Source: Escherichia coli
GTDB taxonomy: Bacteria > Pseudomonadota > Gammaproteobacteria > Enterobacterales > Enterobacteriaceae
Direction: 5' to 3' (one strand)
DNA length: 64,000 bases
NCBI RefSeq assembly: GCF_030013595.1
Contig: NZ_CP122768.1
Shown: positions 13,053 through 17,237 of the stretch, in pieces
How the letters are laid out: each line of letters starts with the position of its first letter
Numbering within the stretch: the first letter of the stretch is position 1
Made by a program: the position numbers and the translations under genes
Notes under the pieces: model-generated
The model's database searches: none
Told to the model about the DNA's origin: nothing
The model's input: only the letters and a program-made list of their open reading frames with translations

Positions 13053-14540
<1,488 letters not shown>

Positions 14541-14564
14541 TAAACTGTAGCAGGAAGGAACAGC

Positions 14565-17237
14565 ATGACAGATGTAACGATTAAAACGCTGGCCGCAGAG
14601 CGACAGACCTCCGTGGAACGCCTGGTACAGCAATTTGCTGATGCAGGTATCCGGAAGTCTGCTGACGACTCTGTGTCCGCACAAGAGAAACAGACTTTGA
14701 TTGACCACCTGAATCAGAAAAATTCAGGCCCGGACAAATTGACGCTGCAACGTAAAACACGCAGCACCCTTAACATTCCTGGTACCGGTGGAAAAAGCAA
14801 ATCGGTACAAATCGAAGTCCGCAAGAAACGCACCTTTGTGAAACGCGATCCGCAAGAGGCTGAACGCCTTGCTGCGGAAGAGCAAGCGCAGCGTGAAGCG
14901 GAAGAGCAAGCCCGTCGTGAGGCAGAAGAATCGGCCAAACGTGAGGCGCAACAAAAAGCTGAACGTGAGGCCGCAGAACAAGCTAAGCGTGAAGCTGCTG
15001 AACAAGCGAAACGTGAAGCTGCGGAAAAAGACAAAGTGAGCAATCAACAAGACGATATGACTAAAAACGCCCAGGCTGAAAAAGCCCGCCGTGAGCAGGA
15101 AGCTGCAGAGCTCAAGCGTAAAGCCGAAGAAGAAGCGCGTCGTAAACTCGAAGAAGAAGCACGTCGCGTTGCTGAAGAAGCACGTCGTATGGCGGAAGAA
15201 AACAAATGGACTGATAACGCGGAACCGACTGAAGATTCCAGCGATTATCACGTCACTACTTCTCAACATGCTCGCCAGGCAGAAGACGAAAGCGATCGTG
15301 AAGTCGAAGGCGGCCGTGGCCGTGGTCGTAACGCGAAAGCTGCGCGTCCGAAGAAAGGCAACAAACACGCTGAATCAAAAGCTGATCGTGAAGAAGCACG
15401 CGCAGCAGTACGTGGCGGTAAAGGCGGAAAACGTAAAGGTTCTTCGCTGCAGCAAGGCTTCCAGAAGCCTGTTCAGGCCGTTAACCGTGACGTTGTGATC
15501 GGCGAAACCATCACCGTTGGCGAACTGGCGAACAAGATGGCGGTTAAAGGCTCTCAGGTCATCAAAGCGATGATGAAACTGGGCGCAATGGCAACCATCA
15601 ACCAGGTTATCGATCAGGAAACCGCACAGCTGGTTGCCGAAGAGATGGGCCACAAAGTTATCCTGCGTCGTGAAAACGAGCTGGAAGAAGCGGTAATGAG
15701 CGACCGTGACACGGGTGCAGCGGCTGAACCGCGCGCGCCGGTTGTGACCATCATGGGTCACGTTGACCACGGTAAAACCTCTCTGCTGGACTACATTCGT
15801 TCAACGAAAGTGGCCTCTGGCGAAGCGGGCGGCATTACCCAGCACATTGGTGCATACCACGTTGAAACTGAAAACGGCATGATCACCTTCCTGGACACCC
15901 CGGGGCACGCCGCGTTTACTTCAATGCGTGCTCGTGGTGCGCAGGCAACGGACATCGTAGTCCTGGTTGTTGCTGCCGACGACGGCGTCATGCCGCAGAC
16001 CATCGAAGCAATCCAGCACGCGAAAGCGGCGCAGGTTCCGGTGGTCGTTGCAGTGAACAAGATCGATAAACCAGAAGCCGATCCGGATCGCGTTAAGAAC
16101 GAACTCTCCCAGTACGGCATCCTGCCGGAAGAGTGGGGCGGTGAAAGCCAGTTCGTACATGTGTCTGCGAAAGCGGGTACTGGTATCGATGAGCTGCTGG
16201 ACGCTATCCTGCTGCAGGCGGAAGTTCTGGAACTGAAAGCGGTACGTAAAGGCATGGCGAGCGGTGCGGTTATCGAATCCTTCCTCGATAAAGGTCGTGG
16301 TCCGGTTGCTACCGTTCTGGTACGTGAAGGTACTCTGCACAAGGGCGATATCGTTTTGTGTGGCTTCGAATACGGTCGTGTTCGTGCGATGCGTAACGAA
16401 CTGGGTCAGGAAGTGCTGGAAGCGGGTCCGTCCATTCCGGTGGAAATCCTCGGCCTGTCCGGCGTTCCGGCTGCGGGTGATGAAGTTACCGTTGTACGTG
16501 ACGAGAAGAAAGCGCGTGAAGTTGCACTCTATCGTCAGGGTAAATTCCGCGAAGTTAAACTGGCGCGTCAGCAGAAATCTAAACTCGAGAACATGTTCGC
16601 CAACATGACCGAAGGCGAAGTTCACGAAGTGAATATCGTCCTGAAGGCAGACGTACAGGGTTCTGTGGAAGCTATCTCCGACTCCTTGCTGAAACTGTCT
16701 ACTGACGAAGTTAAAGTGAAGATCATCGGTTCTGGCGTAGGTGGCATCACCGAAACCGACGCTACCCTGGCTGCGGCGTCCAACGCCATCCTGGTTGGCT
16801 TCAACGTACGTGCTGATGCCTCTGCACGTAAAGTGATTGAAGCGGAAAGCCTGGATCTGCGTTACTACTCCGTCATCTATAACCTGATCGACGAAGTGAA
16901 AGCGGCAATGAGCGGTATGCTGTCTCCGGAACTGAAACAGCAGATTATCGGTCTGGCGGAAGTTCGTGACGTGTTCAAATCGCCGAAATTTGGTGCCATC
17001 GCAGGCTGTATGGTTACCGAAGGTGTGGTTAAACGTCACAACCCGATCCGCGTTCTGCGCGACAACGTGGTTATCTACGAAGGCGAGCTGGAGTCCCTGC
17101 GCCGCTTCAAAGATGACGTTAACGAAGTCCGTAACGGTATGGAATGTGGTATCGGCGTTAAGAACTACAACGACGTCCGCACTGGCGATGTGATCGAAGT
17201 ATTCGAAATCATCGAAATCCAACGTACCATCGCTTAA
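14565..17237 (+). CDS. infB: Translation initiation factor IF-2
   Basis: 890-aa ORF; G-domain motifs GHVDHGKTS and DTPGH; charged repetitive N-terminal region. Confidence 0.95.

Follow-up and report, generated by a model that had tools for sequence, protein, structure and literature searches.

The infB locus and its repeat arrays

In the window analysed here, i.e. the whole stretch of 64,000 nucleotides of Escherichia coli DNA, the plus-strand ORF at positions 14565–17237 specifies a protein of 890 amino acids followed by a stop codon, as seen in the ORF list and the translation. Pfam searches identified the GTPase core and the IF2-specific C-terminal domains in this product (PF00009, GTP_EFTU, E = 2.1e-39; PF11987, IF-2, E = 1.9e-43), with further matches to PF22042 and PF03144 and a called EF-G_D2 domain. 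Two stretches of IF2_N (PF04760) were also found, and these sub-domains, together with IF2_assoc (PF08364), confirm an N-terminus of the enterobacterial type. PDB entry 1nd9 (N1 domain) aligns to IF2 residues 2–50, and full-length E. coli IF2 is also present in the PDB. The nusA–infB operon order is seen in the window: an ORF of 495 amino acids lies at 13053–14540, 24 nt upstream of infB, and RefSeq labels it nusA at E. coli loci of identical sequence. The allele is an ordinary one, showing 100% identity over 701 nt to the annotated infB of several E. coli strains and 99.3% identity to K-12 infB. The first-pass annotation had placed a tandem charged tract in the N-terminal region of infB, a placement borne out by the translation, the Pfam domains, and the 100% DNA identity. 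This tract is the already known charged N-terminal linker of E. coli IF2; the published region and that in the window agree in gene, coordinates, and start codons, and nothing differs between them. The features of the gene and of the tract are as follows.

14565–17237, plus strand: infB CDS (IF2-alpha, 890 amino acids), from the ORF, Pfam, and RefSeq, which assigns matching E. coli DNA of 100% identity to infB.
14730–14846, plus strand: conserved IF2_assoc region, residues 56–94, directly upstream of the repeats (PF08364, E = 2.3e-17).
14850–14873, plus strand: degenerate leading unit PQEAERLA, residues 96–103, at the predicted helix start; it shares 12 of 24 nt with the unit that follows.
14874–15035, plus strand: array 1, residues 104–157, with 6.5 imperfect 24-nt/8-amino acid units A[A/E]EQAKRE (Tandem Repeats Finder, lag-8 periodicity).
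14970–15017, plus strand: hot spot of copy-number variation, two identical AAEQAKRE units, residues 136–151; 20 of 24 nt identical.
15081–15203, plus strand: array 2, residues 173–213, opening domain II with EEARRxxE units of 8 or 7 residues (Tandem Repeats Finder, lags 7 and 8).

The DNA words quoted for the repeats in the first-pass annotation all recur in the tract: GAAGAGCAAGC is located at 14877 and 14901, CGTGAGGC at 14916, 14940, and 14964, and GAACAAGC at 14976 and 15000. The motif CGTGA[AG]GC occurs six times from 14892 to 15012 at an exact spacing of 24 nt, compared with four times in the remainder of the 64-kb window. Tandem Repeats Finder reported 24-nt periods at 14874–14929 and 14937–15030 and 24/21-nt periods at 15117–15200; the units are thus head-to-tail direct repeats whose periods (24 and 21 nt) are multiples of three. 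At the protein level, residues 96–157 gave 34 lag-8 self-matches of 54 possible, whereas composition-preserving shuffles gave 10.7 ± 2.8 (z = 8.4), and none of 5,000 shuffles reached the observed score; at lag 16, z was 6.6. Array 1 alone showed stronger lag-8 periodicity (z = 9.1), and array 2 (residues 173–214) showed z values of 3.9 at lag 7 and 3.1 at lag 8. Since shuffles never match the observed periodicity, these are true periodic repeats rather than a product of biased composition only.

The tract is, as had been claimed for it, rich in E, A, R, and K (E+A+R+K+Q account for 94% of residues 96–157), and its units are imperfect, with nucleotide identities of 64–77%. Both facts would suit a reading in which the tract is simply low-complexity sequence of biased composition, with repeats that are apparent and a length that is effectively fixed, as would a spread sample of E. 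coli records in which all 59 complete matches were equal in length. However, the lag-8 and lag-16 matches unattained by shuffles, the exact 24-nt motif spacing, and the ∼60 records that vary in length by whole units (see below) leave this reading with next to no probability. The periodicity against shuffles, the whole-unit alleles, and the breakpoint analysis together refute it.

What keeps the repeats was examined at synonymous sites. At positions where units share a residue, the same codon was used in 51 of 108 comparisons, where the codon usage of the whole gene predicts 55.5, i.e. an identical-codon fraction of 0.47 vs 0.51 expected at random. Units thus agree in synonymous codon choice no more than chance predicts, and conservation of the repeats is confined to the protein level; we show here that they are maintained by protein-level selection, not by DNA homogenization. 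High DNA identity between units, as from recent duplication or homogenization, was not found in the allele of the window, which retains only exact direct repeats of 5–14 nt at spacings of 24 or 21 nt. The longest of these, the 14-nt repeat GAAGAAGCACGTCG, lies in array 2 with a spacing of 21 nt. As a separate observation, infB of a Pantoea symbiont contains 3.5 perfect copies (100% identical) of a 48-nt double unit.

Internal starts and antisense ORFs

Domain I of IF2 comprises residues 1–157 and domain II residues 158–290, and the isoforms IF2-alpha, -beta, and -gamma, produced from in-frame starts, have been described, including the production of the shorter beta and gamma proteins from GTG158 and ATG165 (PMC12297416, PMC10486304). 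Domain I closes with array 1 and domain II opens with array 2, and a short, A-rich, unstructured segment containing both start codons sits between them. The first-pass annotation had missed these two starts (15036 and 15057), both of which lie inside the stretch it described.

15021–15047, plus strand: initiation region, codons 153–161 (GCG GAA AAA GAC AAA GTG AGC AAT CAA), under synonymous constraint.
15036–15038, plus strand: GTG codon 158, the in-frame IF2-beta start (sequence; PMC12297416, PMC10486304).
15057–15059, plus strand: ATG codon 165, the in-frame IF2-gamma start, seven codons past GTG158 (sequence).

Since the internal starts are located between the arrays, array 1 is confined to the long isoform IF2-alpha, of whose specific region it is the C-terminal part; array 2 is common to all isoforms. 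The initiation region overlaps the final unit of array 1, and its synonymous sites are nearly invariant: mean synonymous codon entropy among 38 species was 0.21 in codons 150–158, 0.57 in codons 96–149, and 0.77 in codons 159–185. The IF2-beta GTG is kept in 69 of 69 Enterobacterales species, across which the 18 nt upstream of it, including a conserved GCGGAAAAAGAYAAA, are also conserved. Conservation at the nucleotide level is likewise noted for GCG-GAA at codons 112–113 and 153–154. A Met codon is present 6–8 codons past the GTG in most Enterobacteriaceae and is absent in some genera, e.g. Edwardsiella, Hafnia, and Ewingella. Of 574 windows of 45 nt across 14480–16200, those centred at 15042–15063 are the least structured, so that synonymous constraint and low mRNA structure, the signature of an internal start, coincide here. 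Strong Shine–Dalgarno pairing before GTG158 is absent (–3.5 kcal/mol, a value equalled or bettered at 29% of in-frame positions), and a same-strand search near infB for a complement of the conserved GAAGCGGAAGAG motif found none.

Two ORFs run antisense to the tract.

14724–15368, minus strand: spurious antisense ORF of 214 amino acids in the codon-aligned antisense frame, bounded by TCA54 and TCA271; no Pfam match.
14714–15043, minus strand: spurious antisense ORF of 109 amino acids in a second antisense frame, attributable to tract composition; no Pfam match.

The view that the repeats create these ORFs holds only for the shorter one, whose frame contains one stop in 119 tract codons vs 19 in the other 675 codons. 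The 214-amino acid ORF reflects codon usage, not the repeats: infB contains just four TTA, CTA, or TCA codons in 890, two of which (codons 54 and 271) bound this ORF, and the same antisense frame gives longer ORFs where there are no repeats (489 amino acids over nusA and 571 over the rest of infB). Only the 109-amino acid ORF owes its openness mainly to the composition of the tract. No Pfam family was found in either product, and the antisense ORFs at 14714–15368 should stay unannotated.

Length alleles of the tract

In total, about 26 records with variant array 1 and 34 with variant array 2 were identified among 5,425 E. coli records. This census used blastn identity bands and counted records below 95% identity as variant, a line under which every indel of 18–24 nt fell in a local simulation; ∼8 of the 26 array-1 records were counted by this threshold alone. 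In-frame array changes are thus carried by ∼60 of the 5,425 records (∼1% of complete-genome records), a frequency inflated by a clonal set of 29 records (Esc strains and CNR20191027) and by two records of the same strain H32, and reduced to ∼0.6% after clones are collapsed. About 99% of E. coli genomes share one infB tract length. The tract had been called prone to in-frame expansion or contraction, with identical repeat number in all strains named as the finding that would speak against slippage; repeat number proved not to be identical in all strains, but ‘prone’ is an overstatement, applicable only in a relative sense because the tract is stable in ∼99% of genomes.

The 16 sequenced alleles show changes of –96, –48, –24, –21, +21, +24, and +48 nt, all in whole units and in frame, with gains or losses of one to four units on several haplotypes. 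The corresponding CDSs are 2577, 2625, 2649, 2652, 2694, 2697, and 2721 nt long (normal length, 2673 nt) and encode IF2 proteins of 858, 874, 882, 883, 897, 898, and 906 amino acids beside the normal 890. Strains carrying them include N68, STEC2018-553, SY033, OkiPb01695, H32, and CMZE046, and the internal starts GTG158 and ATG165 are intact in all length alleles. The AAEQAKRE unit pair at the hot spot is present in one, two, three, or four copies among E. coli strains. In array 2, the natural alleles are –24, –21, and +21 nt, i.e. –8 amino acids in the Esc/CNR20191027 clone, –7 in H32, AR_0149, and AH21H025, and +7 in CMZE046.

Breakpoints, located by a mismatch-tolerant scan, lie within direct repeats of 5–18 nt in the 14 of 16 alleles that fit a single event; in each of the other two, SY033 and M15, 24 nt were duplicated at two separate places. 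Three microhomology blocks, CGTGA, GAACAAGC, and CGTGAAGCTGC, each served both a deletion and a duplication, and the occurrence of –24 and +24 changes through these three different blocks, on different SNP haplotypes, indicates that the events recurred independently. Strains thus differ in copy number by whole units, the changes breaking within the repeats, and the surviving short repeats would permit occasional slippage during replication, or deletion and duplication mediated by microhomology.

Assemblies readily go wrong in repeats, and obvious frameshifts are present in the infB repeat region of Enterobacter sp. EA-1, which might suggest that the differences in length reflect errors in sequencing or assembling long-read genomes. 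We regard this as very improbable: in all 16 alleles the length difference is an exact multiple of 21 or 24 nt that preserves both reading frame and repeat register, and the 14 single-event alleles break within direct repeats. Moreover, WP_000133053.1 (+8 amino acids) appears in the annotation of strains from three sources, namely Canada, the UAE, and a CSF collection, and WP_276332224.1 is present in two Korean isolates, so that each recurs in separate isolates, and mutations of the same kind have been obtained in the laboratory and Sanger-sequenced (PMC4371806). The length of infB is thus not strictly invariant in E. coli, which matters for typing schemes and for quality control that flags length deviations as errors.

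The outcome depended on the way of searching. The spread sample mentioned above, drawn from a 701-nt megablast at a step of ∼92 records, gave 59 of 59 complete matches of normal length and hid the rare variants, which rank at the bottom; such sparse sampling of ranked records would alone have wrongly implied that there is no polymorphism. A first query with probes for predicted deletion and duplication junctions matched 4,606 genomes, because SNPs stretch the microhomologies past the 28-nt seed and alignments extend across similar neighbouring probes; the first real variants surfaced there. The final junction-probe search, filtered against five wild-type alleles, returned 195 records; this figure is not a census, and at least five of the records inspected (2018-18.25PC, HNSQ2209, IBS28, ECP19-598, and OW968111) are normal-length SNP alleles.

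Across species, a DNA-pattern scan of species genomes, with a pattern for the end of IF2_assoc that closes with [F/Y]VKR, picked up infB in 113 genomic stretches from Enterobacterales and Vibrio. On the scale in which array 1 is 62 or 70 residues long, 37 species have 62 residues, 15 have 70, and the remainder have 64, 65, 69, 71, or 72; array 1 thus varies between genera mostly by one unit (62 vs 70 residues).

A putative helical spacer and comparison with known systems

An AlphaFold2 model of a fragment, computed from a single sequence, shows one helix over fragment residues 20–141, which correspond to IF2 residues 96–217, with block means of pLDDT mostly above 90.

14850–15215, plus strand: predicted single continuous alpha-helix, residues 96–217, covering both arrays and the linker between them (AlphaFold2, charge pattern).

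Since the run used a single sequence, this long, uninterrupted predicted helix is weak evidence. The charge pattern points in the same direction: within residues 96–217 there are 38 pairs of opposite charge at i,i+4 where 16.7 ± 3.2 are expected (z = 6.7), no like-charge i,i+4 pairs where 16.5 are expected, and an excess of opposite charges at i,i+3 (z = 2.9). The segment is 53% charged and 7% hydrophobic and has the features of an ER/K sequence, namely abundant E, K, and R, pairing of opposite charges (i,i+4 and i,i+3), and a scarcity of hydrophobic residues. The charge pattern and the model together suggest that the tract is a helical spacer of the ER/K type. The acid–base alternation at i,i+4 would make the segment of ∼120 residues largely helical and a flexible spacer, which would hold the N1 sub-domain, where NusA binds, apart from the core that binds the ribosome, and each whole-unit change would shift its length by ∼1.2 nm while preserving the alternation in the array.

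The literature describes the region in other terms. The linker after N1, which binds NusA, is called ‘flexible’ (PMC12297416), and a preprint reports that the N-terminal IDR of IF2 drives cold-induced phase separation and that an AlphaFold3 model of the region has very low confidence (PMC11838494). These reports favour a disordered polyampholyte that serves multivalent, RNA-dependent cold condensation, in which repeat number counts only through charge and length. We consider this possible, though clearly the less probable reading: acid–base order at i,i+4, the complete lack of like-charge pairs, and a helix with pLDDT above 90 are unexpected for a random polyampholyte, and the same preprint notes some alpha-helical content, both predicted and spectroscopic (PMC11838494). 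Because ER/K helices are dynamic, the helical and disordered views are not exclusive. A coiled coil dimerizing IF2-alpha would also account for a long predicted helix, and array 2 has some 7-residue periodicity; it is nevertheless extremely improbable, since the dominant period is 8, not 7, array 1 is 2% hydrophobic and array 2 is 10% hydrophobic, and periodicity and composition analysis found no heptad a/d pattern of hydrophobic residues in either array.

Taken together, the locus is very probably best explained as the known IF2 linker, with repeats kept at the protein level, rare slippage, and a putative helical spacer. Published work already covers the gene, its charged linker, and both internal starts, and has shown that strains with in-frame indels in the tract are viable; the discovery value of the charged-linker finding is accordingly small. 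A further idea, that unit number in both arrays is a functional length dial rather than neutral noise, with array 1 as a tether and array 2 providing standing variants, appears to us rather doubtful. If it were true, the reach of an ER/K tether from N1 to ribosome-bound IF2-alpha would be determined by array 1 in steps of ∼1.2 nm, and the 62/70 genus classes and the one- to four-copy E. coli alleles would tune early transcription–translation coupling or the alpha : beta ratio; the –8, –7, and +7 amino acid alleles of array 2 would then be associated with altered cold-specific ribosome biogenesis or condensates and with intrinsic lamotrigine insensitivity.

Among known systems, the predicted helix is best compared with the ER/K (SAH) segments of myosin VI/X, caldesmon, INCENP, and the CAF-1 KER (PMC4183817, PMC4571873, PMC10335832, PMC5347031). 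Like these, the IF2 tract is more than 50% charged, alternates E with R/K at i,i+4, is almost without hydrophobic residues, and would form a long helix between two functional domains. Unlike them, it is bacterial, contains 24% A and 10% Q, and has a period of 8 residues rather than the designed 7-residue AEEEXXX units; moreover, its helix is here a predicted one, in a region called flexible or disordered in the literature. No description of IF2 as a charged single alpha-helix was found in the literature searched.

Simple-sequence contingency loci resemble the infB tract in that the copy number of repeats within a CDS shifts by slippage between direct repeats. The tract differs from them in its units of 21–24 nt, which are imperfect and synonymously scrambled, and in its changes, which are rare (∼1%) and always in frame. 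The short perfect repeats, frame or promoter shifts, and on/off states of a phase-variable locus were not found, all changes being multiples of three and of unit length. It is accordingly quite unlikely that infB is a contingency locus, i.e. that repeat number is frequently changed and selected to tune IF2 for cold, drug tolerance, or isoform ratio. Such a role would agree with the recurrent, independent +24 and –24 events at one unit pair, with the fixation of one array-2 deletion in the 29-record clone, and with the resemblance of array-2 indels to lamotrigine-resistance alleles that abolish drug binding at no growth cost at 15°C (PMC4371806, PMC10486304). However, the variants make up just ∼1% of records, or ∼0.6% with clones collapsed, no association with host or source was evident among the variant records seen, and imperfect, scrambled 24-nt units contrast directly with the short, perfect repeats found in phase-variable genes; since all length changes are in frame, there is no on/off switching.

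The closest published counterparts of the natural alleles are those selected with lamotrigine. All 20 of 20 spontaneous lamotrigine suppressors carry changes in IF2 domain II, where in-frame deletions of three classes and a single short duplication were seen, and the suppressors of Stokes et al. (2014) grow like the wild type at 15°C (PMC4371806); resistance deletions of 8 amino acids and of 17 amino acids (the latter being residues 176–192) have also been reported in this domain (PMC10486304). No published counterpart was found for the array-1 (domain I) variants. The natural domain II indel alleles are ready-made strains for studying the role of the linker in cold adaptation, NusA coupling, and condensates. 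The lamotrigine alleles were selected in the laboratory, whereas the natural ones come from natural and clinical isolates without known exposure to lamotrigine; likened by array and kind of indel rather than by exact published breakpoints, both are viable in-frame indels in the repeat tract of domain II.

The infB gene and its two repeat arrays

The charged repeats described in the first-pass annotation are real and correctly located, and were for the most part correctly read; they occupy infB codons 103-212. The charged tract of translation initiation factor IF2 is already known biology, and our additions are modest, i.e. a count of unit-number alleles in the population and the finding that these recur at defined microhomologies.

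14565-17237, + strand, infB ORF, 890-aa product
14874-15035, + strand, array 1, residues 104-157
15081-15203, + strand, array 2, residues 173-213

The product of the infB ORF contains the Pfam domains IF-2, GTP_EFTU, EF-G_D2, and IF2_N (two stretches), with IF2_assoc at residues 56-94. A 701-nt segment around the tract shows 100% identity to the annotated infB of several E. coli chromosomes, and nusA is located 24 nt upstream of infB; the window therefore represents the E. coli nusA-infB operon. Among 5,426 complete genomes of E. coli, 5,425 contained a match to the segment and one contained none. Some genomes contain up to five separate matches, one match is plasmid-borne, and record 2015C-4498 begins within infB, which splits the gene across the record origin.

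Array 1 reads in eights as AEEQAQRE, AEEQARRE, AEESAKRE, AQQKAERE, AAEQAKRE, AAEQAKRE, and AAEKDK, directly preceded by a degenerate unit, PQEAERLA. All the DNA words quoted in the first-pass annotation are found in the tract, and CGTGA[AG]GC occurs six times at a spacing of exactly 24 nt. Tandem Repeats Finder and a repeat finder gave a period of 24 nt for array 1 and periods of 24 and 21 nt for the second array (15117-15200). In 5,000 composition-preserving shuffles, the lag-8 self-matches of array 1 (34/54) exceeded the expected 10.7 +/- 2.8 (z = 8.4) and those at lag 16 were likewise in excess (z = 6.6), which confirms the claimed repeats as a periodicity beyond low complexity; array 2 (residues 173-214) also shows a genuine, though weaker, signal (lag 7, z = 3.9; lag 8, z = 3.1). 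Identical codons were used at 51 of 108 same-residue positions between units, compared with 55.5 predicted from the codon usage of infB itself. This is the random level, and DNA-level homogenisation is thus absent; the periodicity is maintained through selection on the protein. All that is left for mispairing is short exact repeats at unit spacing, the longest being 14 nt (GCGGAAGAGCAAGC at lag 24 and GAAGAAGCACGTCG at lag 21), followed by repeats of 12, 11, and 10 nt.

Length variants in E. coli and their origin

Comparing tract length across E. coli infB alleles, as the first-pass annotation had proposed, gave a divided answer: no length change was seen in a spread sample of records, which is blind to rare alleles, whereas the blastn census found 26 (array 1) and 34 (array 2) of 5,425 records below 95% identity. 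In a simulation covering all in-frame indels of 12-48 nt, run with blastn and two short queries, those of 18-24 nt all fell below this value. Variant records were named by a junction-probe search, and 16 variant and nine normal-length loci were fetched; 18 of the 26 array-1 records were named, and the array-2 records (29 + 4 + 1) are exactly the 34 of the census. Annotated infB lengths were 2577, 2625, 2649, 2652, 2694, 2697, and 2721 nt, compared with the normal 2673. After collapsing one clone and a duplicate assembly, ~31 variant records (~0.6%) remain.

Variant infB alleles in E. coli records
Array 1, one AAEQAKRE copy: E19025/RMDEC364, EC130/bR_120_Kylling, E5, 2824
Array 1, three copies: 02B17CRGN002, O157 Al Ain/WS4437A-1, N10/N25/DETEC-S565/23CRST038
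Array 1, four copies: OkiPb01695
Array 1, added REAEEQAQ unit and a third unit copy: SY033, M15
16-aa loss: STEC2018-553
32-aa loss: N68
Array 2, -8 aa: 28 'Esc' strains and CNR20191027 (a single clone, the largest array-2 group)
Array 2, -7 aa: H32 (one strain, two assemblies), AR_0149, AH21H025
Array 2, +7 aa: CMZE046

Three array-1 variants, N10 and N25 (+24 nt) and N68 (-96 nt), come from one cerebrospinal-fluid isolate series.

In the 16 aligned alleles, all changes are in-frame and comprise whole units, leaving the linker and internal starts untouched. A single event with breakpoints within a 5-18 nt direct repeat fits 14 of them; SY033 and M15 have no single-event fit, each carrying two separate 24-nt duplications. 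Within the AAEQAKRE pair, a deletion and also a duplication can be traced to each of the blocks CGTGA, GAACAAGC, and CGTGAAGCTGC, and the SNP haplotypes involved differ; the events are therefore recurrent. Such a pattern is typical of replication slippage or of microhomology-mediated recombination, and on this basis we infer the mechanism. Artefactual length variation is unlikely, as the changes are exact unit multiples, WP_000133053.1 and WP_276332224.1 are each annotated in unrelated strains, and lab-selected, Sanger-sequenced mutations of the same class exist (PMC4371806). In that study, all 20 spontaneous lamotrigine suppressors mapped to IF2 domain II, being either in-frame deletions, of three classes, or a short duplication, and grew normally at 15 C (PMC4371806); the loss of 8 aa and the loss of residues 176-192 from IF2 have also been reported (PMC10486304).

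Internal starts, related genera, and antisense ORFs

15036-15038, + strand, GTG codon 158, IF2-beta start
15057-15059, + strand, ATG codon 165, IF2-gamma start, seven codons past GTG158

These published in-frame starts (PMC12297416, PMC10486304) lie between the arrays and were not noticed in the first-pass annotation. GTG158 directly follows the last array-1 unit; therefore, only IF2-alpha contains array 1, the last unit of which overlaps the initiation region of IF2-beta. Domain II, which begins with array 2, is common to all isoforms. We located infB in 80 genomes using a DNA pattern for a conserved peptide ending in [F/Y]VKR, and compared the starts in the 69 Enterobacterales species in which both landmarks were locatable. 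The valine codon is GTG in 69/69, and the 18 nt upstream are nearly fixed (GCNGCGGAAAAAGAYAAA). In 38 species of equal array length, synonymous codon entropy falls to 0.21 at codons 150-158, with values of 0.57 on the upstream side and 0.77 on the downstream side. Shine-Dalgarno pairing is weak, the least structured 45-nt windows (574 scanned, 14480-16200) are centred at 15042-15063, and initiation seems to rely on this open, A-rich region.

Synonymous-site conservation at codons 111-114 and at 15024-15029 is unaccounted for by protein sequence. GAAGCGGAAGA (14895-14905, codons 111-114) is kept in ~70/73 Enterobacterales/Vibrio loci; Ala112 is GCG in 70/73, though GCG makes up only 28% of array Ala codons, and codons 109-114 show no variation across 38 species. 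The initiation region of IF2-beta contains a second GCGGAA (15024-15029). The first GCGGAA-containing motif is not followed by an in-frame start, and a search near infB found no complementary sequence on the same strand.

In 37 species, array 1 spans 62 residues from VKR to KVSNQ, and in 15 species it spans 70, one unit more; lengths of 64, 65, 69, 71, and 72 occur in Yersiniaceae-, Hafniaceae-, and Pectobacteriaceae-like genera. Five Vibrio loci (L051, L068, L074, L084, and L090) encode a similar AKREAEE-type 8-residue array after the conserved peptide, and the charged repeat linker thus extends beyond Enterobacteriaceae; the KVSNQ landmark was not found in them. In Pantoea sp. Nvir, a symbiont of the stink bug Nezara viridula, array 1 consists of a double unit of 48 nt (16 aa), REAVEKVKRETEEKAK, in 3.5 identical copies (locus L040, 1318-1487), which indicates recent tandem amplification; the KVSNQ/GTG landmark is not recognisable there. 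In Enterobacter sp. EA-1 (L089, CP025776.1), frame breaks in the linker/array-2 region (codons ~165-260) are followed by stop codons, probably reflecting assembly indel errors in an essential gene rather than a pseudogene.

13239-14708, - strand, antisense ORF, 489 aa, opposite nusA, codon-aligned
14714-15043, - strand, antisense ORF, 109 aa, in a different frame from the next
14724-15368, - strand, antisense ORF, frame the reverse complement of infB codons
15921-17636, - strand, antisense ORF, 571 aa, opposite the 3' part of infB and beyond, codon-aligned

Stops in a codon-aligned antisense frame arise only from sense TTA, CTA, and TCA. These number four among the 890 codons of infB, and ORF 14724-15368 spans TCA54 to TCA271. 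The claim that the tract generates the minus-strand ORFs at 14714-15368 therefore fails for this ORF, whose lack of stops reflects codon usage in highly expressed genes rather than the repeats. It holds for the 109-aa ORF, whose frame has one stop in 119 tract codons versus 19 in 675 others, so that tract composition matters. Neither ORF matched a Pfam family. The 489- and 571-aa ORFs are long because TTA, CTA, and TCA are nearly absent from these two highly expressed genes, and an ORF-based gene caller could mistake both for genes.

Charge pattern and possible role of the tract

Charged residues make up 53% of residues 96-217, and hydrophobic residues 7%. The segment contains 38 opposite-charge i,i+4 pairs (16.7 +/- 3.2 expected, z = 6.7) and no like-charge pairs at this spacing (16.5 expected). 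Two i,i+4 steps fit into one 8-residue period, so that the alternation of E and R forms a ladder running from unit to unit; whole-unit indels preserve this acid-base alternation inside the array. A single-sequence AlphaFold2 run predicted that residues 96-217 form one helix, most block pLDDT means being >90. A coiled coil was ruled out because a heptad core is absent. The segment following the NusA-binding N1 sub-domain has been termed a flexible linker (PMC12297416), and a disordered polyampholyte is a serious rival to a helical tract, given the report of cold-induced condensates driven by a disordered, partly helical region (PMC11838494). On the predicted structure, the tract is best read as a putative dynamic helical spacer: its charge and helix pattern is that of ER/K single alpha-helices, which serve as spacers (PMC4183817, PMC5347031).
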